Shown here: positions 2,736-33,984 of the stretch, piece by piece
Numbering within the stretch: the first letter of the stretch is position 1
Layout: each line of letters begins with the position of its first letter
Origin: a virus
Length of the DNA: 64,000 nt
Direction: 5' to 3' (one strand)
Virus record (IMG/VR): IMGVR_UViG_3300027861_000017
Location: 1-64,000 of that record
Position numbers and translations under genes: made by a program
The notes under the pieces: model-generated
Told to the model about the DNA's origin: nothing
What the model saw: only the letters and a program-made list of their open reading frames with translations
Databases searched by the model: none

Positions 2736-4052
2736 TTAAGATGCTGGAATCTTTGCTATATCATCCTGTGGTCGAATTTCCTTAGCATTTCCCATCCAGC
2801 ATTGTTCTACATAACTCATATTATCAAGAGCACCCTGCAACTGTGCTGCTTGTTCCTTAAACCCTTCACATTCAGATCTCATCCCATTGATATTCTGTGT
2901 CAACTCATCCACTCTAGCACATGTATCTTTATACATAGGAGTGTTGGGGTCCATTTGGCCTTTAAGACCGGTGAGACTGTTAACTTCTCCAGCAAGATGT
3001 TCTGCTTCGCTTCTGATTTGTTCAAAGCTGCTCCTAGCTTGGTTAATTCTCTGCTGAAGCTCTTGCCTCCTGGAGTCCATTTTAACTCTCATGGAGCAAT
3101 CACTCTCGAATGGATACATCCACATAGCTTTAAGTAGATCGCATTTCTCTGGGACGTAAACTTTTATGCCCATACCACGAGCTATACCTACAAAGTACTC
3201 AACAGACGGTCTTTGGTATGAGTATTCGTTGCCCATTCCAAAACCACCCTGAGCCATGTCAACACCATAAATATGGATATGCTCAAAACCTTTACCGCCA
3301 TGCTCTCGTGCTAAAGCAGTCTCAAGTATGGCCATTACTAACATCCAACTTATAGAGTTAGTAAAGTAAGTACCGTACCTACTCGTTATCATATCTTTAA
3401 TACATGGAGCACCATCCTTACCCTCTAGAAATGGTACACTCATTGGAATCTCAGGTACAAGGTGTTGCATGTAACACATTACACCAAATTCACTTAATCT
3501 ATCCCCTAGCCATGCGTGATGGCTGTGATCTCTTCCTACAGCAGCTTCGTAATCGTGTTTGTGATGTATCTGGAACCAACGAGTAACCTTTTTCATGAAA
3601 TCTTCTTGGTTCGGTCTCCAAGCTATATAAAGCTGATTCAATCCCCATATTTCTACATCATCCTGGTCAAAGAGGTATTTAACATCAAACATGCTGCTTG
3701 GTGCAAAGCCTACTATTGCTACCTTATTCTTATCTCTGTAAAGAGGCTTACCATCGTCAGTCAACCATTCTGACCCAACTATGGGACCATCTCCTCCGGA
3801 CTTAGATCCTATGCATAGCTTTGGTTGTACTATCTTAGTATCTTTTACTATGATATCCTCTTTTGGTATATCGACTATAAGGTTACTTCTCTTAGGCTTC
3901 GATGTACCTCTTTCGTTCATCTTACTTTTTATCAACTCTAAGAGATCTGCTTTAGTGCGTTTCTTGGCACCCTTTATGTTGAATGCGTCTTGTGCTACTT
4001 GGATCAATTCCACCTTCGTCATTGTGTCGATATCCCTTACATTACTCTCCAT
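2736..4052 (-). CDS. Putative nonulosonate/sialyl-type glycosyltransferase (CstII GT42/GT29/Maf-like fold) with Rho-N-like N-terminal helical domain and C-terminal coiled coil
   Basis: KVAIVGFAPS...EIWGLNQLY...NSISWMLVMAI...FEHIHIYGVDM parallels, as recalled, CstII KVIIAGNGPS...VFRCNQFY...TSGVYMCAVAI..GYKEIYLSGIDF; MTKVELIQVA...TKADLLELI is Rho-N-like; start moved to the ATG after the GGGAGGGG RBS. Confidence 0.6.
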   Translation of the reverse strand: MESNVRDIDTMTKVELIQVAQDAFNIKGAKKRTKADLLELIKSKMNERGTSKPKRSNLIVDIPKEDIIVKDTKIVQPKLCIGSKSGGDGPIVGSEWLTDDGKPLYRDKNKVAIVGFAPSSMFDVKYLFDQDDVEIWGLNQLYIAWRPNQEDFMKKVTRWFQIHHKHDYEAAVGRDHSHHAWLGDRLSEFGVMCYMQHLVPEIPMSVPFLEGKDGAPCIKDMITSRYGTYFTNSISWMLVMAILETALAREHGGKGFEHIHIYGVDMAQGGFGMGNEYSYQRPSVEYFVGIARGMGIKVYVPEKCDLLKAMWMYPFESDCSMRVKMDSRRQELQQRINQARSSFEQIRSEAEHLAGEVNSLTGLKGQMDPNTPMYKDTCARVDELTQNINGMRSECEGFKEQAAQLQGALDNMSYVEQCWMGNAKEIRPQDDIAKIPAS

Positions 4053-4078
4053 GATAGTTTCCCCTCCCATAAAAAATT

Positions 4079-4114
4079 AAAAGTAATGTGACCCCACAAT
4101 TAAGTAGGGCCACA
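4079..4114 (-). terminator. Probable intrinsic terminator
   Basis: UGUGGCCCUAC-UUAAUU-GUGGGGUCACA followed by UUACUUUU. Confidence 0.6.
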
Positions 4115-4121
4115 ACATGTA

Positions 4122-4619
4122 CTAAGTTGAACTTGAAACAGTATACTTGACTCCAAAATTCTGCGTAGTAGGTACAGCTACAGTAGATAATAGCCATTGA
4201 GAACTATTAAGCGCATTAAGATTTAGCGTTAAACTATCACTAATTGCTGATGTAACTGCGTTAGTAGATACTGCTACAACGCATGCACTAGAATTAGCAC
4301 TATAAATTCTTACTGGATATGCATTTACTGCACCAGTAGAAAACCTGATAGCACAAGGAGCTGAAGATATTTTAACTATTCGTTTAACATCTCCAGCAGT
4401 TGGAGTTTTCATTAAGAAAACTTGTTTGATTGTATTGTTAAGTATTGACACACCGGTAGGGCTAAGAGTAGCATTACCTGATGTATGAACAACTATGTTT
4501 TTATTTCTTATGACACCACTAGATTCCAGCTCTATTGACGCACCATCAGGGACTATTAAGTCTCCATCTTGGGAATTATATACTCGCCCATTGTGGTGTC
4601 CTACTTCTGTACTAGCCAT
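4122..4619 (-). CDS. Ser/Thr-rich putative head decoration/fibre protein
   Basis: Position downstream of the capsid gene; RVYNSQDGDLIVPDGASIELESSG start; ends VSSST. Confidence 0.5.
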   Translation of the reverse strand: MASTEVGHHNGRVYNSQDGDLIVPDGASIELESSGVIRNKNIVVHTSGNATLSPTGVSILNNTIKQVFLMKTPTAGDVKRIVKISSAPCAIRFSTGAVNAYPVRIYSANSSACVVAVSTNAVTSAISDSLTLNLNALNSSQWLLSTVAVPTTQNFGVKYTVSSST

Positions 4620-4654
4620 AGTATGACCTCCATTGAAAAATTGTTAAACCCAGG

Positions 4655-4704
4655 AGGGAGCAATTGGATGACCGAGCATTCCCAGTCCGAACCAACTACT
4701 CCCT
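4655..4704 (-). other. Intergenic long RNA hairpin (possible RNase III or stability element)
   Basis: AGGGAGUAGUUGG/CCAAUUGCUCCCU stem, 4x2 internal loop, GACUGGG-AAUG-CUCGGUC; G-U pairs are minus-strand specific. Confidence 0.6.
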
Positions 4705-4711
4705 TAGAATG

Positions 4712-5173
4712 CTAGGTTGATGGGCCTACAAGAAGTGCAGACTGATCTATAAGAGTAGAATCATATAGACTTGTTGCTCCAGGTCTACGAACTCCATATT
4801 TTATAACAGTACCAGACAGACCAAGACCAGACGTATTGGTAATGGCAAATCTTATGTACTCTTTATCTGGTTTGTAAACATCCAGAAATACAGTCTTACC
4901 TTCGGCGGTATCTCTACCCTTGTTGCCTGATGTTACGGCTACTACTGTGGTAGATCCCATATTGACGAAAGTTCCAGCAGAGTCAGTAGATCCCTGAACC
5001 CTAAGAAACATTGTTTTACTGTTAACAGGCTCGAAATCTGTAGAACCTCTGAAAATATAAACAGCACCTTCTGCGTCTCTCATGTCTATAACACCAGAGA
5101 AGATAGTGCTTGTTACACCTATGCTACCCAGACCGGTGTCTGGTAGTACAACGCAATTATCACGAAAATTCAT
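4712..5173 (-). CDS. Putative capsid decoration/cement protein
   Basis: First structural gene after the MCP once the HEG is ignored; beta-sandwich-like, GVIDMRDAEGAVY...KEYIRF; GGAGG RBS before ATG 5173. Confidence 0.55.
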   Translation of the reverse strand: MNFRDNCVVLPDTGLGSIGVTSTIFSGVIDMRDAEGAVYIFRGSTDFEPVNSKTMFLRVQGSTDSAGTFVNMGSTTVVAVTSGNKGRDTAEGKTVFLDVYKPDKEYIRFAITNTSGLGLSGTVIKYGVRRPGATSLYDSTLIDQSALLVGPST

Positions 5174-5202
5174 CTTTTTTGCCTCCAAAGAAGAAATTAT
5201 TG

Positions 5203-6030
5203 TTATTGTTTGATTCTTATAAACTTAAAATCTTTATAATGGTTTTCTATGGCTTGTTGCCTTTTTACATCCTTATCTCTAAGACTCCCGTCAGAAAGAA
5301 AATGATGAGACTCATCCCATTCCATTATTAATTTTATATCTTTATTAAAATAGTCGAGCCAGTATCCAAGTTCTGGTATGAAATGTTCACCGCCGTTAGT
5401 GGCGTGTCTTCCTTCTATACCGTGTACAATATCAAAACATCTAAAGAATTCACAAGCTTTTGGGTTGTATTGAATATATCCGTTGCTATGAACAGCGGAA
5501 CATTGTCTACAACAATATCGTCTGCCTTGTATTGCTTGCCTCCTAGATAACTTATTATCGCAATCTGGATTGTCGCAATCAGGTATTTTTATATCAAACC
5601 TTCTTCTTCTATTCAATTCTGCTGTTGAGCAGCTTCTAGAACAATGAACGGTTCCCAATTTCACTTGAAAAAGATCTAAGAAATTTTCACAACCTTGAGC
5701 AACGCATTGAATATCCGATAATTGATTGCTCAATTCATCGTTTTTAGCTTTCGCTTTTTGGTGATATTCTTTTTGCTTGTGGGGATTTTTATGTCCCCAC
5801 TCTTTACGTTGTTCGTTTCCCTTATCTTTATTTTCTTCACGATAAGCTTTACGTTTATCTGAGTTGTCGATATTATAATCTCTAACTCTCTGCTTAATAG
5901 ATTCTTTATTAGCTTGGTAATACTCTTTACTTTTAGCTGATAATTTATCTTTATTTGCTTCACAGTAACGCTTATTTTGAATTCTTTTCTTTTCTTTTTT
6001 CAACTGTTCTTTAGATAATGACTCGTTCAT
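5203..6030 (-). CDS. Free-standing homing-type endonuclease (Vsr/DUF559-like PD-(D/E)xK domain with Zn fingers)
   Basis: Basic helical repeats, CSRSC and CCRQC Zn motifs, C-terminal GYWLDYF...IMEWDESHHF...DVKRQ. Confidence 0.7.
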   Translation of the reverse strand: MNESLSKEQLKKEKKRIQNKRYCEANKDKLSAKSKEYYQANKESIKQRVRDYNIDNSDKRKAYREENKDKGNEQRKEWGHKNPHKQKEYHQKAKAKNDELSNQLSDIQCVAQGCENFLDLFQVKLGTVHCSRSCSTAELNRRRRFDIKIPDCDNPDCDNKLSRRQAIQGRRYCCRQCSAVHSNGYIQYNPKACEFFRCFDIVHGIEGRHATNGGEHFIPELGYWLDYFNKDIKLIMEWDESHHFLSDGSLRDKDVKRQQAIENHYKDFKFIRIKQ

Positions 6031-6037: not shown

Positions 6038-7363
6038 TTATCCCAATGTTACGCGGCTGAACGCTTCGGATAACACAACCATCCCGTCGGTCTCAAGAAG
6101 TACCCTAAAAGCCACCTGATAAGTATCGGCATAACGCTCATCTAACCTTCTAATCTGAAGATCAAGGGAATCAGCAATGTGATACCATTTGAAGTCTCCA
6201 AATATTCCAACATACTGTCCGGTAGTGAAAGTATTAGGAGCATACTCACTCATAAAGAATGGTCTATCAAGAATAGTGTCTGGACGATCTGAAGCTAGAC
6301 CTGCTCTCCATAGATAATCACCATCATTGCCTTTGAGTTTTCTTATGTCCCTGATAGCATCCCTATGGAAAATCCAAGATCCACTATTCATATACTGTCC
6401 CTTAACATTGTACTTGCAATTAATAAGACCATCGGCCTTTATTTGGGTAGCAGTATTTCCAGTTGCAATATCCCTATCAGTGTTAAGACCAGCAGCACTA
6501 GCTATGAATATACCTAGGGGCTTATTTGCTCCTGAACCTAACATAAATGCCTTCTCAGCACCTTCAGCAGCCTTATGGGACATTCTCTCTATAACCTTAC
6601 CTTCCACATCTATAGCACCCATCCTGAGCAATTTCTCAGAAAGTTTGATCATACCATGTAGGGGATGAGGATAAAGCTCTCTCTTGTCAAAATTCATCTG
6701 AGTGTCATCTGGAGGTGTTTGTGTCTCATTTCCCCATACGAAATCATCAGGATCGTTATCAAGAGCAACTTCACCAAGACTCATAGCCTTTGGAAGTGTA
6801 TGTACTGTACCTAGTTGCTTCATGAATAGTTCATCATCTACTTTCTGAATTATCTTAGATACCATTTGTTCCGGCATTATTAAATAACCCGCCTGAGTAT
6901 CATTGTTAGCCTGAAGGTTTCTCATCTCTGATTCATTCATGCCTTCTCTACAATACTGAACCATAGCATCTCTGTATTCCTGAGTAGCATAAGCATTATT
7001 GTTCATAATACGATGTGCTCTGAATGCAGTCCTGTATCTTTCAGGAATATGGTCCATACTTATATTTCTATCTTCAGTATCATTGTCCCCTGAAGTAGGT
7101 TTGATTGGAGTATACTGAGCTTTCTCCATCTCTTCTTTGCGAGCCTCAAGATCAGCAGTACGTTTCTCACTAGCTGCCTGAGTTTTCTTATGATCATCAA
7201 TCTGGGCTGTGAATGAATCAAAATCAACATTCGCTTTATCCCAAGTCTCCAACTCCTCTGGAGTTAGTTCTCTCTTCTCTGTAAGAGCCACGTTATTCAG
7301 ATCTTCCTGAATCTTAACGACCTTATTACGCTCATCATAAACGGCTTTTATATCTATAGGCAT
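6038..7363 (-). CDS. HK97-family major capsid protein with N-terminal delta (scaffold) domain
   Basis: Coiled-coil N-terminus; AGYLIMPE, FMLGSGANKPLGI, LKGNDGDYLW, IFGDFKWY, DGMVVLSEAF motifs. Confidence 0.95.
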   Translation of the reverse strand: MPIDIKAVYDERNKVVKIQEDLNNVALTEKRELTPEELETWDKANVDFDSFTAQIDDHKKTQAASEKRTADLEARKEEMEKAQYTPIKPTSGDNDTEDRNISMDHIPERYRTAFRAHRIMNNNAYATQEYRDAMVQYCREGMNESEMRNLQANNDTQAGYLIMPEQMVSKIIQKVDDELFMKQLGTVHTLPKAMSLGEVALDNDPDDFVWGNETQTPPDDTQMNFDKRELYPHPLHGMIKLSEKLLRMGAIDVEGKVIERMSHKAAEGAEKAFMLGSGANKPLGIFIASAAGLNTDRDIATGNTATQIKADGLINCKYNVKGQYMNSGSWIFHRDAIRDIRKLKGNDGDYLWRAGLASDRPDTILDRPFFMSEYAPNTFTTGQYVGIFGDFKWYHIADSLDLQIRRLDERYADTYQVAFRVLLETDGMVVLSEAFSRVTLG

Positions 7364-7367: not shown

Positions 7368-8594
7368 TTAAAACTCCTCTAATGTTATATGTTTCTTTTT
7401 TAGTTGAACTTCTCTGTCTCTTTGCTTAGCTAGAATCTCTGCTTCAGATGGCTTCTGCTCATCATCGCTATTATTCTCATCCTCATTGACGTTCTCGTCT
7501 GAGGCTTGTTGGTTATCGTTTACTTCATCGTTACTACTATCATCACCATCAACGTTCTCGTTAGATGGATCGCTTTCATCCTTACTATCGTCTTCCAAAG
7601 GTTCTACTTTGGTATCGTCTTCAATTTTAACTTCCTTGCTTTCTTGTTCTACTGTGACATTCAACTTTAGATTGACTGGCACATCTAGATTAATTTTCTG
7701 TTCTTGTTTATCTTCTACTGCTTCGTCTTTCTTATCTTTAGGATTAGTAACTTCTGTTCCGTCTTCTGGATTAGTTACTTCTGTTCCGTCAACATTTTTG
7801 TTAGGTGCTTTGGAATCATCTTTGATATCATCTGGGATCTTTACAGTCTCATCATCCCTATTAGTCCATACACTCAATGACCTAAGAGCTAGGTTAGTAT
7901 CTGGATAAGCAGGAAATAAAACCTGAGAACCATCAAATATAGATGAGCAACCTCCAGGCTTCAATGTCCTTATTGGCATACCATCTTTATCGTTTTCCCA
8001 TCTATCTCCATCTTGATTAGTTCTAAATCCGAATGAATTACCTTTGATGACTTTCTTTTCTATCGGGATTAGTACCATATCTCTTATAGTATTTGTAACG
8101 AGTGGTGTTAGTTTATATCGCAAACCAACTTCATCTTCCCAAACTTCCAATTTACCTTCTGGGCCTGGGGCAGATTCTCTACCTAAAGGATAATTCTGAT
8201 CATGATTAAATAGATCTATAACATCGCTACCTTGCAATGCGTCTCTAAAAAAACCTTTCTCTATTTGCTCTCTGAATCCACCAAGATCTCCAGATAATTT
8301 ACCAAATTTAGCATAATACCCTTCTATGACAGGTAAATCATTGTCATCTTTGGCAACCCTTATCTCTGCGTCTGTCTGAGGAGTAAATCTTCTCTCAATC
8401 CCATCTATTTTAAACTTCTCTTTATCGACTGCCATATTTCCTCTTGATTTTTTATTTTTATCTTTCCAACTCACATTACATATAGCGAGTCTTTGTTTAT
8501 TATCAGTATATTCTGTATTCATCTTGTCATCGCTCATGCAACGTTCTATGAATTTATCTTTGTCTTCATTTTTTTTTGGTTTTGGTATTGGCAT
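7368..8594 (-). CDS. HK97-family prohead protease with acidic C-terminal extension
   Basis: IEGYYAKF, FREQIEKGFF, LFNHD, SFGF, VLFPAYPDT motifs; likely start MPIPKPK at 8594. Confidence 0.9.
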   Translation of the reverse strand: MPIPKPKKNEDKDKFIERCMSDDKMNTEYTDNKQRLAICNVSWKDKNKKSRGNMAVDKEKFKIDGIERRFTPQTDAEIRVAKDDNDLPVIEGYYAKFGKLSGDLGGFREQIEKGFFRDALQGSDVIDLFNHDQNYPLGRESAPGPEGKLEVWEDEVGLRYKLTPLVTNTIRDMVLIPIEKKVIKGNSFGFRTNQDGDRWENDKDGMPIRTLKPGGCSSIFDGSQVLFPAYPDTNLALRSLSVWTNRDDETVKIPDDIKDDSKAPNKNVDGTEVTNPEDGTEVTNPKDKKDEAVEDKQEQKINLDVPVNLKLNVTVEQESKEVKIEDDTKVEPLEDDSKDESDPSNENVDGDDSSNDEVNDNQQASDENVNEDENNSDDEQKPSEAEILAKQRDREVQLKKKHITLEEF

Positions 8595-8826
8595 TTTTAC
8601 TTCCCTTTGGTCTGCCACGTTTCTTCTGGGGTTTCGGTGTAGGAATCTCCAATCCACCACCACCCTTTTTGCAAGCATATTCTTGCATAGCTATAGCTGC
8701 TTCATCGTGGGCTTCCATTCTTTTTTGGAATCCTTCTAAAAGTTCTCTTATAGCTTTAAGCTCTCTCCATATATCAATTCCGTATTCCCCACACATACTC
8801 CCCTCCATTATGGTTACATTCTTCAC
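8566..8826 (-). CDS. Small protein with AT-hook-like motif
   Basis: KKRGRPKGSKN at the C-terminus. Confidence 0.45.
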   Translation of the reverse strand: MKNVTIMEGSMCGEYGIDIWRELKAIRELLEGFQKRMEAHDEAAIAMQEYACKKGGGGLEIPTPKPQKKRGRPKGSKNANTKTKKK

Positions 8827-9542: not shown

Positions 9543-10556
9543 TTAGCAAGGCTTCCTCTTGAAGTCATTGTAGGTACAGCCTTTTTCACTGTGGGCACTA
9601 CGATGACAATCCTTGCATAAAGTGACGCACATGTCCAAATCGGCTGATAACACAGGGTTTATTTCCACGCCTTCTAGGTGGTGACAGTGAAGCTTGGCTT
9701 CAACTCCCTTGCCGCACCTTATGCATTCCCAATTATCCCTCGCTAAAACTAGCTGCCTGAGAGCTGGTTGCACCTCGCGAGAAGTTGCCTCCTTGAAACT
9801 TTTAGGACGTACTCTTTGATTATATATCGGACATGATTTCTTACACCCCTCAGAACAATAAAAGTTGCCTTCGAAGGGTCTATTACCTTTAAAATATTGA
9901 CTTCTATTATCTACTTGCGTTACATTTGGAGTAAACCATTGGTTACAATAAATACATTTTACTTGTAATATCTCACTGTCTTCAAGGTGTCTTCTGCATT
10001 CATCATAGAACAGTTGTTCTTTATATAAATTATAATTAGCTGGACCTTGACGGTATTCTTCTTTATATTCCCTTCTGCGTTTCGCAACTTCTGGCCTATA
10101 GTAATATTCTTTTTTGTTCTTTTTACCCTTTGTACTTTGGGCATATTCTCTATTACGTTTTTTAATTTCTGGACTCTGACGATATTCCTTATCACGTTCT
10201 ATTATTTCTAGTCTTTGACGATACTCCTTCCTATATTCTTTCCCTCGCTCCTTAATCTCTGGTCTTTGACGATACTCCTTAGCATATTTCTTTCTACGTT
10301 CTTTGTTCTCTGGGTTTTCATTATATTTCTTAATGCGCTCTATCACGTCTGTTCTTTGTCGATATTCTTTTTGATACTCCCTTTTACGTTCTCGGTATTC
10401 AGATCTTTGATAGTATTCTTTATCATAGTTTTCTTTATGCTCTATTACTTCCGGCCTTTTGCGGTATTCTTTTTGATATTCCTTTTTACGCTTTACTACC
10501 TTTGGCCTTTGATTATATTCTTTCCTATATATTCCTATGCATTGAATGTCAAGCTT
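9543..10556 (-). CDS. HNH endonuclease with EYRQRPE-type helical repeats; 5' end unclear
   Basis: RDNWECIRCG...LHCHH...CVTLCKDCHRSAH; the frame stays open from 10556, directly after the portal stop, but the first canonical start is GTG 10346. Confidence 0.8.
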   Translation of the reverse strand, partial: KLDIQCIGIYRKEYNQRPKVVKRKKEYQKEYRKRPEVIEHKENYDKEYYQRSEYRERKREYQKEYRQRTDVIERIKKYNENPENKERRKKYAKEYRQRPEIKERGKEYRKEYRQRLEIIERDKEYRQSPEIKKRNREYAQSTKGKKNKKEYYYRPEVAKRRREYKEEYRQGPANYNLYKEQLFYDECRRHLEDSEILQVKCIYCNQWFTPNVTQVDNRSQYFKGNRPFEGNFYCSEGCKKSCPIYNQRVRPKSFKEATSREVQPALRQLVLARDNWECIRCGKGVEAKLHCHHLEGVEINPVLSADLDMCVTLCKDCHRSAHSEKGCTYNDFKRKPC

Positions 10557-12629
10557 TTATTGTATTGGTATAATGCGGCATTCGCACCCGCTATGAATTG
10601 GCGGATGAAACTTGTCAGATCTCATATATATGGTACTTTCTTTTTGACCCTCTGGTGGTTGAGATGTTAAGGGGTCCCCTTTCAAGAAAAAGGGCTTGTC
10701 GATGCTAACCGTCTTACCATTTAATTGAGCGCAGAACGGACATGGGTCTGAATCAGTACGCCATACCATTCTCTTAACACCAGCCTGCTCTGCCATGTGT
10801 CTTACCATGGCTTGACTTTCGCGCACCATCTCATCTTTAGCTATTAAGGATGCTCTTTTAGCTTGCCATTGTGCTGTTCTCTTGGTAATTTCTTCGTAGA
10901 CATCTTTTTCTACACCCTTTAGTATTTTATCCAACTGACCCATGGAACTTCCTATGTGTCTCTTGATATAAACATCCATATAGGATTGGGTCCACTGTTC
11001 AAGTTCCATTGTCCAACCCTTAAGAGTACCTAGCCTCTGCCCAACCTCAGCAGACACCTGCTGTAAAAAGACCTTTTGAGTGGGGAGCATGCGAAGTCTC
11101 ATGAATTCTGGAAGTTCTGAATAGAATGTCTCCATCCAAATCCTAAAATCAGCCCCACCCCTAGTATTAAGAAATTTCTGTGCAGCACGATTTATGGAAT
11201 TTACCTCTTTATTTAATACCAACTGTGCGACAATTTCTAATAATGGCTGAAAGTTCCTCTCTATTCTCTCTATGTCGCTATAGAAATCTGCTGTTTCCTT
11301 CTGAGCAAAATCACCCCTAAACTCTCTCTTACTATTCTTCTCATCCTCACCCTGATCATCGTCAGAGTCATCAGGATCATCATCGTTATTGCCAGCCATA
11401 TTATCTAACTTAGTCACCTTATTAGCTATCATAACATCGGCTGCATGCTCAAGTGGGAATAAATTTCCATCAATAAATCTTTGATCCCCGCCTTTTACTT
11501 TGTTTTTATTCTCCATCGCTCTAATATCATTAGGAGACCACACACCGCTTCTAAACCCATGATCATATGCGCCCCAACGTTTCTCAGTATCACCTCTCAA
11601 TAACCCATCTATTAAATGCTCCCAGAAGTACGTATCTCGCTCAGAATCGCTTAAAAGCTGAAGGGAATACCCTTGCTCTAATCTGACTAACCAAGTTCGT
11701 AGCGTATAGGTAACGAACTCTATACCTTGTTCCTCAATATTGGAAAAAGTGGCTTTATCGAGGTCTTTCAACATATGCGGAGGCATATTCGTCAACCTAG
11801 CAACTTCATTCACACTAAACTTCCTAGATTGCAACACCTGAGAATTCTCTGGATCAGACCCAAACTCTTTAAGCTTCATGCCCTCTTCGAGTATAGCCAC
11901 CCTATGGCTGTTAGATAGCCCAGCATTGACTTCGTTCCAAGATGTTTTTAAGTTATTAGCAGCATCCTTTCCTAAATCACCTGGATGCTCTATTACAACT
12001 GGAGGTTTCGCATTGTTACTAAAATACCTTCCCGCATACTCCTCTAACGCAGCAGATATACCAAGAGCTTCTTTACCCTTAGTAACCATGTTATAACCAA
12101 ATAATCCGTTAGGGCTTAAGCCTGATATATGTAATACTCGTTCTTTGGGTAGTAAAGCTTGTGTTCCGTCTGGGAGGTTGTATATGTATATTATTTTGCC
12201 GTCTATTCTCTTCCATGACATTTTATAAGGGAGTAGTGGCCATAATTCAGTTATAACGTTAGCGTTGTTTCTTGAAATTTCAGAATAATGATTGCCCCAT
12301 AACATTAAATGCAACATCATGGATTCTCTATAACTAATCGCACTCATTTCTGAATTCGGCTTTAATTTCAGTAAGTTATATAATGGATGGTCTACAGCTC
12401 GCTCTTTACCTATATCAATTCTTTCGTAAAGTGGCAATGGTAGTGAGCCTATAGTTCCTGCCAGAATCTGACATGCACACCACACTGCTGTTATGCTTAG
12501 AGCATCTTCCTCACTTATATTTTTGCCTGTATATGTTCTCGAACCCACCGCATCTAAAAGCCAACTACTTGGATTAGAAGGATGTGTGCGCTTTTCTGTA
12601 TTAGTATCTGCTAATCTTCTTGCGAACAT
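10557..12629 (-). CDS. HK97-family portal protein fused to a C-terminal MuF/gp7-like head morphogenesis domain
   Basis: AVWCACQILAGTIGSLPL, HPLYNLLKLKPN, LWGNHY, VLHISG, ATFSNIEEQ, SPNDIRAMEN; C-terminal WRT...CPFCAQLNGK...PPIHSGCEC. Confidence 0.93.
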   Translation of the reverse strand: MFARRLADTNTEKRTHPSNPSSWLLDAVGSRTYTGKNISEEDALSITAVWCACQILAGTIGSLPLPLYERIDIGKERAVDHPLYNLLKLKPNSEMSAISYRESMMLHLMLWGNHYSEISRNNANVITELWPLLPYKMSWKRIDGKIIYIYNLPDGTQALLPKERVLHISGLSPNGLFGYNMVTKGKEALGISAALEEYAGRYFSNNAKPPVVIEHPGDLGKDAANNLKTSWNEVNAGLSNSHRVAILEEGMKLKEFGSDPENSQVLQSRKFSVNEVARLTNMPPHMLKDLDKATFSNIEEQGIEFVTYTLRTWLVRLEQGYSLQLLSDSERDTYFWEHLIDGLLRGDTEKRWGAYDHGFRSGVWSPNDIRAMENKNKVKGGDQRFIDGNLFPLEHAADVMIANKVTKLDNMAGNNDDDPDDSDDDQGEDEKNSKREFRGDFAQKETADFYSDIERIERNFQPLLEIVAQLVLNKEVNSINRAAQKFLNTRGGADFRIWMETFYSELPEFMRLRMLPTQKVFLQQVSAEVGQRLGTLKGWTMELEQWTQSYMDVYIKRHIGSSMGQLDKILKGVEKDVYEEITKRTAQWQAKRASLIAKDEMVRESQAMVRHMAEQAGVKRMVWRTDSDPCPFCAQLNGKTVSIDKPFFLKGDPLTSQPPEGQKESTIYMRSDKFHPPIHSGCECRIIPIQ

Positions 12630-22933: not shown

Positions 22934-22952
22934 TTTCATCCCCCTTTTGTAA

Positions 22953-23004
22953 TAAAAAATTGGGCTGGCTTTTGTAACCAAGCCGGAGTTACCAGCTTCC
23001 GGCT
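22953..23004 (-). promoter_or_regulatory. Candidate terminator/antiterminator or pseudoknot leader upstream of the SDR-neuC-legC genes
   Basis: GC-rich island in an AT-rich gap; AGCCGGA/UCCGGCU hairpin overlaps GGCU(U)GGUU/AGCCAGCC hairpin plus a U6 tract. Confidence 0.4.
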
Positions 23005-24840: not shown

Positions 24841-25278
24841 TTATTTCTCCCCCCAAAACCATCGCCTCTTACTTAACATTTTCCTCAACGGATATATACA
24901 GGACCAAGTTACATCCTCCCATAATGTAAACCCTGCTGGCACATCTCCTAGCACACGGGCACCAGCTCCTATAACCGCTCCCTCCCCTATCGTGACATTC
25001 GGAAAAATGATCGAACCCGCTCCCACACAGGCACCAGCCTTGATATGCACAGGACCACGCTTGTTATCAATAGTGTTAACACTATAAATATAACAACCTC
25101 CACCGATTTGAACATCTCTTTCAATTGTAACACCTTCTTGTGCTTGAATATATGTGCCATATCCTATATCTGTGTTCTCCTCCAATATGAAATTATCCAC
25201 TCCCTTAACAACCCATCCGTATTTACATGGTCTACCGTCTTCTAGTTCTGGGGCTTGCCAGTTTTCAAATCTTATCAT
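24841..25278 (-). CDS. Left-handed beta-helix acyltransferase
   Basis: Hexapeptide repeats (VTIERDVQIGGG, GACVGAGSIIFPNVTIGEGAVIGAGARV). Confidence 0.85.
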   Translation of the reverse strand: MIRFENWQAPELEDGRPCKYGWVVKGVDNFILEENTDIGYGTYIQAQEGVTIERDVQIGGGCYIYSVNTIDNKRGPVHIKAGACVGAGSIIFPNVTIGEGAVIGAGARVLGDVPAGFTLWEDVTWSCIYPLRKMLSKRRWFWGEK

Positions 25279-26500
25279 TATAGTTTCCTTTGTATATCTA
25301 TACCTTCTAAAGATTCTATAAGGGCAAATAGTGGTCCAAGCATTATAGATATCAAGAGACCCAAAAACAATAGACTTAAACATATAATTTTGCCCCTATA
25401 CCATCTTATTGAATATAATAATATAGTCAAAGATATTCCAGATATAGGCCATAATAATAAAAGCTCAGTTGACATTTATATACCCCCTTGGATAGTACAT
25501 CATCATCTTAGACTCATCCCAATGTTCTTCTGGATACTCCCTATTTGTTAAAGGGACAACTTTCTGGTCCAGCATTTACTCCTGGTTCTTCTCCATGTTT
25601 TGAAAGTAACTCTTCTATAACTCTCTCGTCAAAGAAGCCATCTTTAATCATAAACAATGAATTCTCAAAAAGTTCATTATATACTAAATAATCTGAGTCA
25701 TTAGCATAAAAATCTGGTTCAGCAGATGGACCTTTGAGACAACTTAAATATCTGTCTCTATCACTATCACACACTATTGTAATACCTATATCATATTCTA
25801 CTCCAACTAAATGCCCTATTATTTCCGTTCCCTTATAGTTTATAAATCTTATTGTTCTACCTTCAAACTTCTCGTAATCCATATTATTTCTCCCTTTCTA
25901 TAACTTCTGCTAATGACAATAAGACTGTTTTGATCATATCGTTTATTGAATGATTTCCACCCTCTTTGGTTTTATTCATATATAGTTTAGTTACGTCATC
26001 GTGGTGTTTCATGTATTGGAGGGAGGTGTAGGGTATCTCTCCTATCTCCTCTGATCCGATTAATAACATTTGACTACGCATACCATTCTTAACAAGCCAT
26101 ATGCCATCAGAGGGGAAGCCGGTGAACTCAGTGCCTACTTCTTTGTATCTTTTACCTACTTTTCTATATAATTTATCCATTATCTCCCTCAATACAATCT
26201 TCCCTAAATATTATCCCTAACTTATCAGAAAGTCTTTTATACTCTTCTGATTCTTCATCGCCAGCCACGAAAAATGAATAATACTCCAAATCTTCATCAA
26301 ACCATTCAGATAAAAACTTATCTTTAGATATGCCAAACTCCACTTGCATAGCCATTTCTTCTGAAACTGGGTCAAACAACTCGTGCCAATATAGACCATC
26401 GTGCTTTGAAAAATCCCAATAAATCTTATAACCTAAGCTTTCAAACATTTCTATTAAGTCTGATTTGTCTAGGTTGGGGTTTAATATTTGTTCTGTCATT

Positions 26501-27273: not shown

Positions 27274-27987
27274 TTATTCACCCTTATCTAATATGTATCG
27301 TTTGTGTAACATCTCTGCTATTTGAAAGTCTACCTCGCTATCTATATCGAAAGCTTGCCAGTCTTCCATGTATAAAGGATAGTTCTTACTATTTAGCACA
27401 TTGTTTATACCTTTGTCAAGCCATTTCTTATTGTATACGTATATACTTGCATTCATTTCATGTATTGCAGGAGCGTCCTGTCTCCTGAGATAATCACCTT
27501 CACACGCAGTCTTAGATTGACCAAATCTGTCAGTTGTTACCATGTTGAAGTAGGGGTTTTTCCTGGCAGGGGATACAGAGAATACCACATCGAGTGTGGA
27601 TCTATTGTTCATCATCTCGTGCATACCAACCGCCTCATGGATGTTGATCATAGTTCTTAGTGGTGCTGATACATCTAGGTCTATTACGGTGTCGTATTCC
27701 CCCCCATACTCGGCTTCAGCAGCAGACACAGCCTCACGTATAGCTTCTATCTTAGGAGTGTCGTCTTGGGCTAGTTTAGGGTCTCTATCGTGGTGATATA
27801 CTCCGTAGGCGTTGCAGAAATGTTTCATACCATCGTAATCAGTTGATACCACTATATCAGCATCCCCATAGATGATAGCTTGAAGGAATGTCCAGTTTAT
27901 TAAAGGTTGGCCATTCATGTCTTTCATGTTTTTGTCAGGGAGTCCTTTAGACCCCTTACGTGCTAGTATTGTTATCAACTTATTCAC
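27274..27987 (-). CDS. neuA: Acylneuraminate cytidylyltransferase (CMP-NulO synthetase; NeuA/LegF/PtmB family)
   Basis: ILARKGSKGLPDKN, VVSTD, DLDVSAPLR, ARKNPYFNMV, RRQDAP, MNASIY, DIDSEVDF. Confidence 0.92.
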   Translation of the reverse strand: MNKLITILARKGSKGLPDKNMKDMNGQPLINWTFLQAIIYGDADIVVSTDYDGMKHFCNAYGVYHHDRDPKLAQDDTPKIEAIREAVSAAEAEYGGEYDTVIDLDVSAPLRTMINIHEAVGMHEMMNNRSTLDVVFSVSPARKNPYFNMVTTDRFGQSKTACEGDYLRRQDAPAIHEMNASIYVYNKKWLDKGINNVLNSKNYPLYMEDWQAFDIDSEVDFQIAEMLHKRYILDKGE

Positions 27988-29234: not shown

Positions 29235-29744
29235 TCATTTTTTATCTCTCTCCTCTACCGCTTCATCTAGCTCTTCTAGAATTTCGGGGATGGGTCTGGT
29301 TGTTGTTTTAGGCGTATTTTCTTGTATTGGTTCACCATTTAATGTGGTTCTAGCTAGATTGTTTTTTATATATAGTTTATCTTTTATATATCCGAACACA
29401 CTGAAACCTAAAATACCTACACATGTAATTAGATAATAAGGTGATAAAATGGTGCAACATAATACATATACAAACAAACACAATAAAGCAATTAAACACC
29501 ACCTGATATCCCAATGTACCGAGTATCCTAAAAATAAACTTAATATCCTAGGCATATATTTATAATTTTTACAATTATTATTATGATTAATATGATCACA
29601 AGTTGAAATGGAATATAAATTCCATTTAGAATAATTACTGGCTGACCTTCTCATTTTGTTTTCTAGATTGGAAGGATGATAGCAATGACCCCAACCAGAA
29701 AGAAGTTCTTTATATTGACATGTGTCGCAATATACTTTAGTCAT
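29235..29744 (-). CDS. Cys-module plus 2-TM protein with conserved C-terminal helix tag
   Basis: YCDTCQY...CYHPSN; TM pair; IPEILEELDEAVEER. Confidence 0.75.
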   Translation of the reverse strand: MTKVYCDTCQYKELLSGWGHCYHPSNLENKMRRSASNYSKWNLYSISTCDHINHNNNCKNYKYMPRILSLFLGYSVHWDIRWCLIALLCLFVYVLCCTILSPYYLITCVGILGFSVFGYIKDKLYIKNNLARTTLNGEPIQENTPKTTTRPIPEILEELDEAVEERDKK

Positions 29745-30144
29745 TGTTACCCCTCTCTTCCACAGCCTCATCTAGCTCTTCCAAGATCTCAGGGATGGGG
29801 CGTTTGGTTTTATGTATACCCCTTAATCTATCATATATGTCATCGTTTGTCTCAGGCATACTATCATATAATTCCTTAAGATTATTGCTAAATGTATTTG
29901 TGGTTTTCTTTGGTGGAAAACTATTTTTGTGGACTTGGATTGTGAATTTATATATTTTTAGCATTAACCTAGGTGTTTTACGTAAACATGAATATGTAAA
30001 TACAAATGGCAGAAAGATCCAAAATAAAATATAACAATATGTTATTGGGCCTTCTGGATAGAAATCATCAGCATCCATTACCTCAACAGAAACCAAAGCC
30101 CATGCAAATAAATATAACACCAATGAAAATGCTAAAGTCTCCAT
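29737..30144 (-). CDS. Membrane protein with conserved C-terminal helix tag
   Basis: N-terminal TMs; IPEILEELDEAVEER. Confidence 0.75.
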   Translation of the reverse strand: METLAFSLVLYLFAWALVSVEVMDADDFYPEGPITYCYILFWIFLPFVFTYSCLRKTPRLMLKIYKFTIQVHKNSFPPKKTTNTFSNNLKELYDSMPETNDDIYDRLRGIHKTKRPIPEILEELDEAVEERGNND

Positions 30145-30692
30145 TACAGCTCCCTCCTATCTACTATACTCTCTACCCTATCTAGAAGAATAGGTAGTTC
30201 CTCTTCGGCCTTCGGGGAGGAGGGTGGGTTCATGTGAGAGGCTATCTCATCCCATATCGGGTCTTCGGTGGTAAACGGAGTGTTGTAGAGGTTGATCTTA
30301 TTGCAATATTTTTTGTAATTATTAAGATAATATTTAATAGTGAATATTATTCCTACCACCCAAATTATAAATGGTATAGGGGAAGAAGATTCGCAGGATA
30401 TTGCAACCATAGCTGCAAATGTTATCATAAAAGCAAGGATATTAAATACAACAAATGTATTGTCAACAATGTATGAACAACCATCACCCAATAATGAAGA
30501 TAATATATTATACCCCTTGTAATTAGGGCAATCGTTATTGCAGTTTAATTTAGTTCCATGGATACTAACCTTATTATATTGCACCCCAACTGAAGTTTTT
30601 CGTATCTTTACATTGCTATAATGACAGCATAGGCTACCACTGTATTCAGATTCATCGTAGTAGTAGCATTTATTGCAATATACGTCAGTCAT
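30144..30692 (-). CDS. Cys-module plus 2-TM protein with conserved C-terminal helix tag
   Basis: YCNKCYY...CCHYSN; TTEDPIWDEIASHM; LPILLDRVESIVDRR. Confidence 0.75.
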   Translation of the reverse strand: MTDVYCNKCYYYDESEYSGSLCCHYSNVKIRKTSVGVQYNKVSIHGTKLNCNNDCPNYKGYNILSSLLGDGCSYIVDNTFVVFNILAFMITFAAMVAISCESSSPIPFIIWVVGIIFTIKYYLNNYKKYCNKINLYNTPFTTEDPIWDEIASHMNPPSSPKAEEELPILLDRVESIVDRREL

Positions 30693-31225
30693 TACTCTTG
30701 TCTCCTATCTATCTCAATGTCTAGATCATCTAACATTTGAGGTATTTTATCTTTTTTGGGTTGCGGGTCGCTCATGTGTTGGGCTATATCATCCCAGATT
30801 GGGTCTTCAGTGGTGAAAAATTCAGTACTGTGTTGTCTTATTTTTTTATGATATTTAGCCTCAGAATTCATTAGACTAAAGAAAACAGATACTACAATTC
30901 CTATCCAAGTTAGGAGGGGTATAAAAGAGCCCAATCCACAAGTCATAGAAACAAAAAGAATTGATCCTGCAACCAGTAGAACGCTAAGAACCCCTATCAT
31001 GAAGTCTTGAGCTATAAAAGCTGCACCATCACCAAAAAAGGCTGAAAATATTGTACCCTTCTTATAGAGATCGCAACTATTATATCTATTTAATCCCTCA
31101 TATTCAATATCCAATGGCGTATATTCTATATCGATAGGTGTTTCTGTGATAACCACGTTTTTAAAATGTCTACACTCAGAATTATCACTTGAGTAATGAC
31201 AATCTTTACAATATACCTTAGTCAT
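30692..31225 (-). CDS. Cys-module plus 2-TM protein with conserved C-terminal helix tag
   Basis: YCKDCHY...CRHFKN; TTEDPIWDDIAQHM; IPQMLDDLDIEIDRR. Confidence 0.75.
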   Translation of the reverse strand: MTKVYCKDCHYSSDNSECRHFKNVVITETPIDIEYTPLDIEYEGLNRYNSCDLYKKGTIFSAFFGDGAAFIAQDFMIGVLSVLLVAGSILFVSMTCGLGSFIPLLTWIGIVVSVFFSLMNSEAKYHKKIRQHSTEFFTTEDPIWDDIAQHMSDPQPKKDKIPQMLDDLDIEIDRRQE

Positions 31226-31670
31226 TGTTATCTCTCCTATCTATCTCTGTATCTATCTTATCTAATAGATCAGGTATGATGTTTTTGGGTTGTTGCGGGT
31301 CGCTCATGTGTTGGGCTATTTCATCCCATATTGAGTCTTTGGTGGTCCAAAGTTTTGTCTTATCATCATGCATACTCCTTAGTTTAAATGCTATTGCTAT
31401 CCATATAGCAGCAAAAACTAGAATAGGCCATACAACTGAAATTACTGCTAGCAATATTAAATATATTAATGGTATTACACCTATAAAAAAGGCACAACAA
31501 TCACTGTCATTCTTATATCTAGCAAAACCCAAAGCTGTTAGGTAGTAAAGATCTTCTCTCTTAACCCACTTATTGGTCATGTAAATTGAATTCAATATCC
31601 AATGCGATAATAAAACTAATGGGATTGACCATAATATAAGTTTCATAATACTACAATATATGTCTAACAT
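31218..31670 (-). CDS. Membrane protein with conserved C-terminal helix tag
   Basis: TMs; TTKDSIWDEIAQHM; IPDLLDKIDTEIDRR. Confidence 0.75.
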   Translation of the reverse strand: MLDIYCSIMKLILWSIPLVLLSHWILNSIYMTNKWVKREDLYYLTALGFARYKNDSDCCAFFIGVIPLIYLILLAVISVVWPILVFAAIWIAIAFKLRSMHDDKTKLWTTKDSIWDEIAQHMSDPQQPKNIIPDLLDKIDTEIDRRDNND

Positions 31671-32020
31671 TATTCATCCCTCTCTTCTATAGCTTCATCT
31701 AACTCTGTTAGTTTAATACTGACTTTATCTTGTAGCTTAGTTAGTTTCTTTTTGTTGTTCTTAATCTTATTCCAGAATGATTCTTCGTCTGTGTCTATGG
31801 GAGTTCCATAGTCTATTGGTTCGGGTGGTTCGGGGTTCATTCTTTTAATTAATATATCAATATCATATGTAGTACAATGATTAAACCAAGCATCTTCTAT
31901 ACAAACCCAACGCTCATACCCATCAAAAGACTTCAAATTAAAATACAAATATCCTAAAAACCATTTCCTAATAGCATATTTCCCATCATTAAATCTAACA
32001 ATCTTCATCATCATCTCCAT
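31670..32020 (-). CDS. Hypothetical protein with conserved C-terminal helix tag
   Basis: VSIKLTELDEAIEER; exact start uncertain (MEMMMK). Confidence 0.65.
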   Translation of the reverse strand: MEMMMKIVRFNDGKYAIRKWFLGYLYFNLKSFDGYERWVCIEDAWFNHCTTYDIDILIKRMNPEPPEPIDYGTPIDTDEESFWNKIKNNKKKLTKLQDKVSIKLTELDEAIEERDE

Positions 32021-32058
32021 ATTGGGCCTGCCCCACACAGACCCAACACAATTAAGTA

Positions 32059-32223
32059 TCAATCCCTGGCTGCTATTATCTTCTCCAATTCTTCAAACAA
32101 ATCCTTTGACTTTCTTCTAAGTGGACTCTTAGCATTCCTTACACTCTTAAAGAAAGAAGATATAACCCCTGTACGTTTATTAACATAATAAAGTATCCCA
32201 CCTATTACAATAAGATAGAACAT
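32059..32223 (-). CDS. 54-aa single-TM protein with C-terminal helix tag (not in the ORF track)
   Basis: Hand translation: MFYLIVIGGILYYVNKRTGVISSFFKSVRNAKSPLRRKSKDLFEELEKIIAARD. Confidence 0.65.
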   Translation of the reverse strand: MFYLIVIGGILYYVNKRTGVISSFFKSVRNAKSPLRRKSKDLFEELEKIIAARD

Positions 32224-32224
32224 G

Positions 32225-32458
32225 TTACACCTCTACGTCTAGGATATTAGTATCAAGAAGCTTCTCATAATTAGCTACGAACTTGTCATAGATAGACTTA
32301 GCTTTGTTGATCTCAACTATCCTTGATTGGAGTAGAGCTATGACCTTCTCTTTTTTCTCACCAACCAGCTTTGTTCTGGCTTCTGCTTCGAGTGATCTTA
32401 CTGTTGCTGCCATTTCATCGAAACTACCTACTGTATCCCTTACTGTTCCTTCTGTCAT
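32225..32458 (-). CDS. Small coiled-coil protein embedded in the tagged-gene array
   Basis: All-helical 77 aa ORF with GAAGGGAG RBS. Confidence 0.6.
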   Translation of the reverse strand: MTEGTVRDTVGSFDEMAATVRSLEAEARTKLVGEKKEKVIALLQSRIVEINKAKSIYDKFVANYEKLLDTNILDVEV

Positions 32459-32459
32459 G

Positions 32460-32765
32460 TTAATTCTCCCTTCCTTCTAGTTTAAGGTTAATGTTATCCA
32501 AATCATCCTCTATGGAGTTATTGGGGTTATCTTTGTTGTCGTTCTTAACTCTCTCATCTATTATTTCATGCATGGCATATTCTATTCCATTGCACAAATG
32601 CAATTCTGCGTATTTATAATCAGTTTCAGGATGAGTATGAAAATAAGGGCATTCATCATTGCAATAGCCACCCCAGTCAGGATTAAGGCAAGCTTGCCTC
32701 TTGAAATAACTGCCCCTTTTAAAATATAACCAGCCTCCTTCATCTATCTTACATCTATGTGGCAT
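32460..32765 (-). CDS. Cys-containing protein with C-terminal helix tag
   Basis: CLNP...YCNDECPYF; IEDDLDNINLKLEGR. Confidence 0.65.
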   Translation of the reverse strand: MPHRCKIDEGGWLYFKRGSYFKRQACLNPDWGGYCNDECPYFHTHPETDYKYAELHLCNGIEYAMHEIIDERVKNDNKDNPNNSIEDDLDNINLKLEGREN

Positions 32766-32766
32766 T

Positions 32767-33003
32767 CTATCCCCTCCCTTCTACCTTCTTATCTACTATA
32801 TCTAAAGCTTCTTGTATTGTCAAGTTGTCTATGTGGTTTTTTATAGCTTGTTTATTGGTTATGGATTTATATGGTGGACGTTTAGACATTTCACATTCTT
32901 TAATGTAAATATCTTCATTAATACAAATGTAAATTGTATGCATTATTGCATAACCAATCAATAAACCTTCTGCAAATATCAATAACATGTCTAACTTTGT
33001 CAT
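32767..33003 (-). CDS. Single-TM protein with C-terminal helix tag
   Basis: N-terminal TM; IQEALDIVDKKVEGR. Confidence 0.65.
   Translation of the reverse strand: MTKLDMLLIFAEGLLIGYAIMHTIYICINEDIYIKECEMSKRPPYKSITNKQAIKNHIDNLTIQEALDIVDKKVEGRG
32797..32830 (-). repeat. 34-nt exact direct repeat, copy 1, overlapping a sigma70-like promoter
   Basis: Identical to 34025..34058; the minus strand reads TTGACA-17 nt-TATAGT. Confidence 0.8.
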
Positions 33004-33201
33004 TCCCCCACCTTCTTCCACACAGTACAAAGAGGGAAGATCTTACCATCGCCACCGAACCCAGAACGCTCAAGCATCATACATACTATCCTGGCTTCAT
33101 GGAGTGTATCATGGTAATCCCTGGTTTCTGAGAATCCATATTCATCTTTAACATTTGAGTCTTCTGGCCATAATGCTATTGATATATATTCCTTAGTCAT
33201 A

Positions 33202-33984
33202 TTATTCCCCCACCTTCTCTACTATCTTTCTAAATAAAGGCTCTGCCTCAAAGATGTTATTCATCATACTAGGGTTGTCTATGTTTGTAAAGAAGTATTT
33301 TAATTGGTCTATGTATATTTGGTCTATCACTTTTATATGGGTGGTGATTCCGGCTACCCTCAATAATCTAAGCTCTTGTGAGGAGGCTAAATCTAGCTCT
33401 ACATGAGTTGAAGTAGAATCTTCATGGGTCAGTGTGTATTTGCCGTGTTTGTCGAAGGTGGAGCCATCTATGGATTGTATGGGGCCAAATAGGTATTGAG
33501 TGTAATCCAATTCGTGGGATAATTCAAAAAGGACGTGATCTAGTTCTCTTTGGGAGGGCCAATTGTTAGAATTGGTTTTACAGACAATTTCTCTGCGTGA
33601 TGTTTCTTTTCCTGTTAGATGGGATTTGAGGTGGGTTATTACGTGGTTAAATCTAAGACAATATCCTATGTAGGTGATAACGCCTTCATCTTTAACTAAT
33701 TTCAATAATATATCTAAGTTTTTATCACTGACATCAACCGGCTTCTCTATAAAAAGCCTCTTTATACCTCTTTCGATACAGTATATGGCTGCCTCGATGT
33801 GTTTGTCTGAGGGGTAGCATATAAATGCGGCATCGAAGTGGGATAAGTCCACATTACTGTTGCCTTTTATATCTAGCTCCTTGACATCGTATAAACGGTG
33901 GTCATAGTTCTTCTGGATTAAACTCCAGTGTTTATTACCTATGCTGCCAAGACCGAAAAACAATATTTGCAAACTGTCATCCAT
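33202..33984 (-). CDS. Gfo/Idh/MocA-family oxidoreductase (PtmF/ElaA-like)
   Basis: GLGSIGNKH, FIEKP, GYCLRF, VLFELSHELDY. Confidence 0.85.
   Translation of the reverse strand: MDDSLQILFFGLGSIGNKHWSLIQKNYDHRLYDVKELDIKGNSNVDLSHFDAAFICYPSDKHIEAAIYCIERGIKRLFIEKPVDVSDKNLDILLKLVKDEGVITYIGYCLRFNHVITHLKSHLTGKETSRREIVCKTNSNNWPSQRELDHVLFELSHELDYTQYLFGPIQSIDGSTFDKHGKYTLTHEDSTSTHVELDLASSQELRLLRVAGITTHIKVIDQIYIDQLKYFFTNIDNPSMMNNIFEAEPLFRKIVEKVGE

Follow-up and report, generated by a model that had tools for sequence, protein, structure and literature searches.

A marine phage carries nonulosonate pathway genes and, in its head module, a predicted sialyltransferase-fold enzyme that may glycosylate a head protein

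The stretch analyzed here, hereafter the window, comprises the first 64,000 nucleotides of the 91,135-bp record IMGVR_UViG_3300027861_000017, from an uncultured marine phage. Its subject is the gene at 2736-4070, whose 444-residue product is a candidate nonulosonate transferase with a predicted sialyltransferase fold, encoded in the head module of a phage that also carries a set of genes for making a sialic-acid-like (nonulosonic) sugar. All genes of appreciable size are encoded on the minus strand, as are all features located below, and G+C content is even (33-39%; 36% for the record). The record has no terminal repeat and a CheckV completeness estimate of 81%, and the stretch or portions of it were present in seawater metagenomes of three studies, with no RNA data set among the sequencing runs listed. 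The head genes, described as intact in an original prediction made from the letters of the window, were all found intact: the large terminase subunit TerL (39981-41672; PF20441, E 3.9e-48; PF03354), a portal fused to a Mu-F-like domain (10557-12629; PF04860, E 3e-97; PF04233), an S78 prohead serine protease (7368-8678; PF04586, E 1e-25) and an HK97-type major capsid protein (6038-7363; PF05065, E 3.9e-47). The sugar genes lie between TerL, at the upstream edge of the cassette region, and the portal, at its downstream edge; the cluster is interrupted by an RtcB gene and several small open reading frames (ORFs). The enzymes and coordinates given in the original prediction all correspond to existing ORFs on the minus strand, and the family assignments hold against Pfam and NCBIfam models, that of the Gfo/Idh/MocA-like protein weakly; the cassette as first listed was correct in its enzymes and left out one gene, a glutamine-amidotransferase-like gene (14472-15329).

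The first enzyme of the putative pathway is a PseB-type UDP-N-acetylglucosamine (UDP-GlcNAc) 4,6-dehydratase (18300-19142; PF02719, E 1.6e-79). It scored 315 bits against the PseB model (cut-off 408) vs. 77 bits against the LegB model, and its best relative in the Protein Data Bank (PDB) was H. pylori PseB/FlaA1 (2gn4) at 228 bits vs. PglF at 120 bits; it thus scores as PseB-type and not as a retaining 4,6-dehydratase of the LegB/PglF type. The DegT-family aminotransferase (20141-21202; PF01041, E 8.6e-79) is LegC-like, the LegC model TIGR04181 being its best family at 238 bits, below the cut-off of 420, with PseC at 189 bits and H. pylori PseC at 82 bits in the PDB search. A left-handed beta-helix (LbH) acyltransferase (24841-25383; PF00132) probably supplies the N-acetyltransferase step; it gave a weak match to the NeuD/PglB/VioB family (52 bits, below cut-off) and matched a sugar N-acetyltransferase in the PDB (7s3u, E 3e-8). 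The hydrolysing UDP-sugar 2-epimerase (21210-22265) is of the NeuC/LegG type (TIGR03568, 307 bits, cut-off 236). The 265-residue nonulosonate synthase (17527-18324; PF03102, E 1.2e-52) belongs to the NeuB family (NeuB model 238 bits, PseI model 146), has a 290-residue NeuB (6ncs) as its best PDB relative, and consists of the TIM barrel alone, without the SAF domain, which in N. meningitidis NeuB contributes to the neighbouring active site. The CMP (cytidine monophosphate)-nonulosonate synthetase (27274-27987; PF02348, E 5e-15) was closest in the PDB to CMP-Neu5Ac synthetases (6ifd and 1eyr, 74 bits) vs. 25 bits for KdsB, and scored 64 bits against the PseF model (cut-off 206). The NeuB protein and the cytidylyltransferase pass Pfam cut-offs and fall below the NCBIfam equivalog cut-offs; at family level there is no ambiguity in how the dehydratase, aminotransferase, NeuB and cytidylyltransferase are assigned. 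Phage NeuB genes were often short, many of the open frames at matches (loci L081-L090) being 244-299 residues long, so that a C-terminal SAF domain cannot fit.

Tailoring enzymes accompany these six. A WbuX/PseA-type N-acetyl sugar amidotransferase, for an acetamidino group (15940-17013; TIGR03573, 307 bits, cut-off 203), adjoins the class-II glutamine-amidotransferase-like protein missed at first (PF13230, E 1.6e-6), which from its position is a possible ammonia donor for WbuX. A sulfotransferase (12856-13767; PF13469, E 2.4e-11) has homologues adjoining the portal gene in four other loci (L003, L010, L012 and L014), and a short-chain dehydrogenase/reductase (SDR; 22259-22981; PF13561, E 7.7e-22) may act in tailoring or epimerisation. 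The Gfo/Idh/MocA-like oxidoreductase (33202-33984) matched PF01408 at 33 bits over the last half of the Rossmann domain only; this is a weak assignment, and whether the protein belongs to the pathway is uncertain. Neither a PseG UDP-sugar hydrolase nor a GNAT-type PseH was found among the ORFs scanned, their places being taken by the NeuC-type epimerase and the LbH acyltransferase. On these model scores the enzyme set appears to be a Pse/Leg hybrid, with a Pse-type first step followed by Leg/Neu-type steps, and for that reason the stereochemistry of the product is not readable from sequence. The product would be a CMP-activated 5,7-diamino-nonulosonate. No membrane segment was found in the pathway enzymes. 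The original prediction had noted the lack of a flippase and polymerase in the window, and this extends to the whole 91-kb record, in which the Wzx, Wzy, GT2 (PF00535) and GT1/4 (PF00534) families had no match.

In the 2736-4070 protein, a helical, Rho_N-like part near the N-terminus (residues ~16-55) precedes the catalytic core (~95-320), and two helices form a coiled-coil hairpin in the C-terminal part (325-432); no hydrophobic or membrane segment is present. The N-terminal helical extension and the unusually long coiled coil mark this enzyme; most members of its family, i.e. its homologues, have 250-330 residues and no N-terminal extension. Phages are known to glycosylate DNA, and the Rho_N match, a weak one (residues 16-55, E 0.0099), could be taken to mean that the acceptor is not a protein, being instead phage DNA, bound through this nucleic-acid-binding domain, or a small molecule. 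Such an acceptor is very improbable, since most of the family does without the extension, no hydroxymethyl-pyrimidine genes were present among the ORFs scanned, and the gene sits in the head module, not in a nucleotide-metabolism module.

Scans of the protein with Pfam, NCBIfam and PHROG models returned no family, only coiled-coil noise. The Pfam scan gave no hit to PF01973 (Maf/MptE-like), and six-frame translations of the record gave none at E <=10, in a search in which control genomes were positive; PF06002 (GT42) was likewise absent from both, the control genomes being negative for it in the six-frame search too. Coiled-coil matches dominated the fold search when the full-length model was used, and the core was therefore folded alone. 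With an alignment of homologues as input, AlphaFold gave a core model of pLDDT 85.8 and pTM 0.86. Foldseek placed the sialyltransferase CstII first (1ro7; E 4.8e-4, probability 1.0, TM 0.41), followed by the Pasteurella sialyltransferase, Cst-I, ST6GALNAC2 and ST8SiaIII. In VIA, a structure aligner independent of Foldseek, 48,161 chains were compared and only three reached Z >=8: MptE (8sd5, 9.7), Cst-I (2p56, 9.2; 169 residues aligned, root-mean-square deviation 3.7) and Maf (5mu5, 9.0); thiamine pyrophosphokinases followed at Z 7-8. The protein is thus sialyltransferase-like by predicted fold and stands outside the GT42 and Maf sequence families, so that the earlier description of it as CstII/Maf-like survives for the fold (in both aligners) and fails for family membership.

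When the family profile was compared with PDB sequences, only CstII chains were touched, at a non-significant E of ~0.7. The weak alignment pairs G121-P124-S125, N145-Q146, G269-D271 and Y283 with CMP-binding motifs; in the same alignment (E ~0.7) the CstII motifs, namely the G-x-G-P-S loop, N-Q, G-I-D and Tyr162, are paired with invariant residues of the family, the patterns lined up being G-x-x-P-S, N-Q and G-[VI]-D. No equivalent of the catalytic His188 of CstII was placed in the 2736-4070 protein, whose invariant residues include H169, D181, H184, D271 and Y283. As MptE, the best VIA match, is a pyrophosphokinase, the fold alone is no proof of glycosyl transfer. The family could instead use an MptE/thiamine-pyrophosphokinase-like fold for another nucleotide-dependent reaction, or have a structural or assembly role in the head, with its link to NeuB indirect; the VIA ranking, the failure of all family models, the unplaced histidine and the conserved coiled coil, which suggests an assembly contact, all speak for this. 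The Foldseek list, dominated by sialyltransferases, and the profile that touches only CstII, at the CMP-binding motifs, speak against it, as does the fact that no other transferase was found in the record. Together with the coupling to NeuB and CMP-synthetase genes described next, which is expected of a cognate transferase, they make a function other than glycosyl transfer rather improbable.

The family was large, comprising 4,802 representatives at 50% identity (E <=0.001), or 3,549 at E <=1e-10, and was present in at least 400 IMG/VR stretches. On the cellular side it was found in 7 contigs, all from metagenome-assembled genomes, among 185,579 species (one genome each); the family is almost restricted to phages. 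NeuB, in turn, is rare among viruses generally: tblastn with the proteins of this phage against 50,697 cultured-phage records found NeuB in 3 and the transferase in 1, and a pattern scan of 2.9 million IMG/VR contigs confirmed NeuB in at least 546 stretches. Among 40 viral records with the family, by comparison, NeuB occurred in 24 and CTP_transf_3 (the CMP-synthetase) in 22, and each was present in all six of those that were >=90% complete. This co-occurrence backs the view that the 2736-4070 protein probably uses a CMP-nonulosonate donor. The converse was weak, the family being found in only 6 of 46 other NeuB-bearing viral records, so that viral NeuB pathways must also serve other ends; NeuB is common where the family is present and the reverse does not hold, which suggests that the enzyme depends on the pathway and the pathway not on the enzyme. 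The sole relative in a cultured phage was a gene of Microcystis phage Mvi-Yong1342-1 (PP496355.1, 5905-6708; 33% identity, E 4e-12), annotated as a 'type 11 methyltransferase' and directly preceding the small terminase gene. No tblastn match to NeuB was obtained in PP496355.1, and the gene may be a mis-annotated, distant offshoot of the family with another donor.

For gene position, all ORFs of 80 loci were clustered and the cluster representatives identified by PHROGs. Upstream sequence was sufficient in 66 loci, and in 53 of them a major head gene lay at most 4 genes upstream of the enzyme and on its strand (median gap 855 bp). The capsid-proximal position holds in four capsid families (the PF05065 cluster, phrog_1005, phrog_371 and phrog_267), and head-tail adaptor, Neck1 and connector genes lie downstream of the enzyme in these loci; in a few phages the enzyme instead stands between NeuB and NeuC. 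The sugar genes of relatives often lie between TerL and portal, or between portal and capsid. PF05065 was absent from 6/6 complete family-bearing records, and the coupling to NeuB therefore spans unrelated capsids. The survey of co-occurrence proposed in the original prediction thus had a positive outcome: the family travels with NeuB and CMP-synthetase, near the major capsid gene, in four capsid lineages.

As a control for capsid lineage, a further 79 loci were taken whose capsid proteins are 40-52% identical to that of this phage, which is the range of its transferase-bearing relatives. The enzyme was encoded downstream of the capsid in 7 of these loci and was missing there in the other 72. 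NeuB was found in none of 22 enzyme-negative capsid-related records (>=17.5 kb, several of them 80-96% complete), and the enzyme was not found elsewhere in those 22 either. When records at least 50% complete were compared, NeuB was present in 14/17 enzyme-positive vs. 0/12 enzyme-negative ones, a contrast whose p-value is indicative only, because the records are related to each other. Many of the enzyme-negative capsid relatives (loci L181-L259, records G087-G112) were classed as proviruses, and none of the enzyme-positive records examined was, which suggests that the transferase module goes with a lytic lifestyle.

These results bear on a different use of the sugar, in which the 2736-4070 enzyme or a host transferase would place it on host lipopolysaccharide, capsule, S-layer, pilin or flagellin, and the remodelled host surface would block superinfection or keep progeny off cell debris. 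Conversion genes usually reside in proviruses, and the family is near-absent from both proviruses and cellular genomes. Remodelling is further disfavoured by the place of the enzyme gene in the head module across four capsid lineages, by sugar genes that lie between terminase and portal, and by the want of any membrane segment, flippase, polymerase or ligase. It is favoured by the many NeuB-bearing viral records without this enzyme family (their majority), in which other uses of nonulosonates must exist, and by precedent, as phage-borne modification of surface sugars is established, for example for the prophage genes epaA and epaB, reported to act on pseudaminic acid in the A. baumannii capsule (PMC12053666). 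On balance, modification of the host surface is an unlikely explanation, if one with a real claim.

Directly upstream of the transferase gene lies a gene for a Ser/Thr-rich protein of 165 residues (4122-4619; 24% serine plus threonine, S+T). Its cluster is united with a second one, c17, by hhalign (97.2%, E 4.4e-11), and the family so formed has a mean S+T of 27% vs. 15% for all ORFs. Members of this partner family were found at 30 of the 70 transferase loci. Of the hits, 26 adjoin the enzyme gene on its upstream side, at loci that span three capsid families (PF05065 cluster, phrog_1005, phrog_371). Within the capsid control it was found in 4/7 transferase-positive vs. 1/72 transferase-negative relatives (Fisher p ~1e-4, indicative only, because the compared records are related to each other and Fisher p-values overstate their independence). 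The Atlas gave nothing usable for the 4122-4619 protein, and its model was poor. The protein is the leading acceptor candidate or, failing that, may be a partner dedicated to the enzyme. Between the two genes lies a terminator-like hairpin (4087-4114; an 11-bp stem, 6 of whose pairs are G-C, followed by a T-rich tail), which is a consensus match only and would fit reduced expression of the enzyme after abundant structural genes. The next gene upstream encodes a small beta-rich head-module protein of 158 residues (4712-5188), a homologue of which follows the capsid gene in 74 of the 79 capsid relatives, with or without the transferase. It is an ordinary head-module protein, possibly a cement or decoration protein like Bbp16; that lead is weak (Atlas; Pfam E 0.027 in 1/15 members). 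Profiles of the 4122-4619 and 4712-5188 proteins matched nothing significant among PDB sequences.

An assembly artefact, in which a host fragment with sugar genes had been joined to a phage contig, would account for the gene content without any of the above. The record has no terminal repeats and is incomplete by the CheckV estimate, and none of the Logan contigs listed, which are short and strain-mixed, spans the portal-sulfotransferase junction. The genes, on the other hand, run on a single strand throughout with even G+C, the cassette is flanked by TerL and portal, independent IMG/VR contigs repeat the sugar genes beside the portal, and exact-match contigs of one seawater run, which may be the source sample, showed a depth of 52-67 over portal and sugar genes alike. 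With the arrangement repeated in relatives and the depth even, the sugar genes are not a host-contig chimera of the kind the original prediction had named as a danger, and an artefact is hardly credible.

The reading we prefer, with a probability of roughly 0.55, is that the phage synthesizes a CMP-diamino-nonulosonate, whose sugar it attaches to one of its own head proteins. A self-contained cytoplasmic route would lead from UDP-GlcNAc to a CMP-5,7-diamino-3,5,7,9-tetradeoxy-nonulosonate of the pseudaminic/legionaminic class, through the PseB-type 4,6-dehydratase, the LegC-like aminotransferase, the LbH N-acyltransferase, the NeuC-type hydrolysing 2-epimerase, NeuB-type condensation with phosphoenolpyruvate and, as the sixth step, NeuA-type CMP activation. 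Likely tailoring would consist of an acetamidino group (WbuX and the glutamine-amidotransferase-like protein), redox or epimerisation steps (SDR, Gfo-like protein) and sulfation. During late gene expression the soluble 2736-4070 enzyme would then transfer the sugar, in the cytoplasm, to a head-associated phage protein, an O-glycosylation analogous to that of Maf acting on flagellin. The acceptor would in the first place be the Ser/Thr-rich 4122-4619 protein, with the Bbp16-like 4712-5188 protein and the capsid protein as alternatives, and the outcome would be a virion with an acidic sugar coat.

Several results count against this proposal. The dehydratase is Pse-type and the later steps are Leg/Neu-type, which makes a working chain of substrates an assumption. 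The enzyme matches no family model, its best VIA match is a pyrophosphokinase, its only profile contact with CstII is not significant, and no counterpart of the catalytic histidine was placed. Most other viral records with NeuB do without the enzyme, the partner family is missing from more than half of the transferase loci, and the records compared are related to one another, so that the Fisher p-values overstate their independence. A wider form of the proposal is put forward tentatively, its chances being slightly below even: the enzyme family, found almost only in phages, and the Ser/Thr-rich partner would be a mobile two-gene module, inserted after the capsid gene in at least 4 unrelated lineages, that coats heads with self-made acidic nine-carbon sugars, in this phage an acetamidino-bearing, possibly sulfated diamino-nonulosonate that is neither canonical Pse nor Leg.

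Other genes of the region were recorded alongside. Downstream of the transferase gene (165-2707) are two Ser/Thr-rich paralogues of phrog_5335 (214 and 300 residues, function unknown), in the place where relatives have a head-tail adaptor gene, and beyond them a 182-residue protein with a Pro-Glu repeat linker and basic tail and a 144-residue protein with 26% S+T; the proteins of 165-2707 may add to the decoration or fibre proteins and are possible acceptors. An HNH-endonuclease-like gene (9543-10346) between portal and protease is not conserved in most relatives, and a basic, Cys-rich ORF of 275 residues (5203-6030), which separates the capsid gene from the next head gene, had matches only in loci L014 and L015; both look like mobile insertions into the head operon. 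The RtcB ligase inside the sugar cluster (23185-24264) is not a sugar gene and, with an HD-domain enzyme resembling CCA-adding/poly(A) polymerases outside the window (L091 15465-17173) and the RlaP nucleotidyltransferase that adjoins it, forms an RNA-repair set. A gene for a radical SAM enzyme (34729-35598) separates the sugar region from the terminase region, and none of the six small ORFs scanned at 29235-34333 has a Pfam family. The part of the record outside the window carries DnaB, a replication-O-like protein and the RNA-repair genes. No large tail genes were found on the 91-kb record, and sequence that follows the head genes on their downstream side must therefore be missing from it.

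Phage particles are usually regarded as bare protein. A widespread, self-encoded acidic coat, if true, would alter views on the stability, charge and stickiness of particles in seawater and mucus, and would bear on their recognition by grazers and immune systems. It would also extend sialic-acid-like protein glycosylation beyond flagella and pili and give a name to a family of several thousand uncharacterised enzymes. The nonulosonate transferases and tailoring enzymes (sulfotransferase, amidotransferase) are a possible supply for glyco-engineering, and the module is compact enough for direct co-expression testing. In the literature searched, no account was found in which a phage nonulosonate pathway is linked to a transferase of the capsid module, and the pelagimyophage paper examined makes no mention of such sugars.

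Among known systems, the bacterial LegB/C/H/G/I/F and PseB/C/H/G/I/F pathways share the reaction logic, with six matching enzyme types. They differ in that the phage set is hybrid, with a NeuB lacking SAF, NeuC for PseG and LbH for PseH, adds the sulfotransferase and WbuX with the amidotransferase-like protein, and lies between terminase and portal. The epaA/epaB genes of an A. baumannii prophage, which are reported to convert pseudaminic to 8-epipseudaminic acid in the host capsule (PMC12053666), are likewise phage-borne genes acting on a nonulosonic acid, whereas here a whole pathway is present, together with a transferase in the head module.

The GT42 enzymes Cst-I and CstII and the Pasteurella sialyltransferase (PF06002) resemble the phage enzyme as its best Foldseek matches (Cst-I also at VIA Z 9.2), in CMP-binding-loop motifs that correspond in the non-significant profile alignment (E ~0.7), and in being soluble, single-domain and genetically linked to NeuB, NeuC and NeuA-type genes. 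The phage enzyme, however, has no PF06002 match, TM-scores of ~0.4, no placed equivalent of His188 and, at its C-terminal end, a conserved coiled-coil hairpin; it is encoded in a head module, whereas the GT42 enzymes add sialic acid to lipooligosaccharide. The Maf flagellin Pse/Leg O-glycosyltransferases (PF01973; 5mu5) have the same fold as the predicted core (Z 9.0) and are coupled to Pse/Leg-type pathways, and the phage enzyme, like them, would be cytoplasmic and have as its substrate a structural protein that is abundant, self-assembling and rich in Ser/Thr. It has no PF01973 match, and its core of ~250 residues compares with ~600 for Maf with flanking domains; in place of flagellin, its neighbour is a capsid gene and the proposed acceptor a head protein. 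Some mycobacteriophages and giant viruses encode enzymes that glycosylate their own virions. The system proposed here from its genes would be like theirs in using virus-encoded enzymes for its own particle, and would differ in that a sialyltransferase-fold enzyme and a self-made, nine-carbon acidic sugar stand in the place of GT2 or GT1/4 genes.

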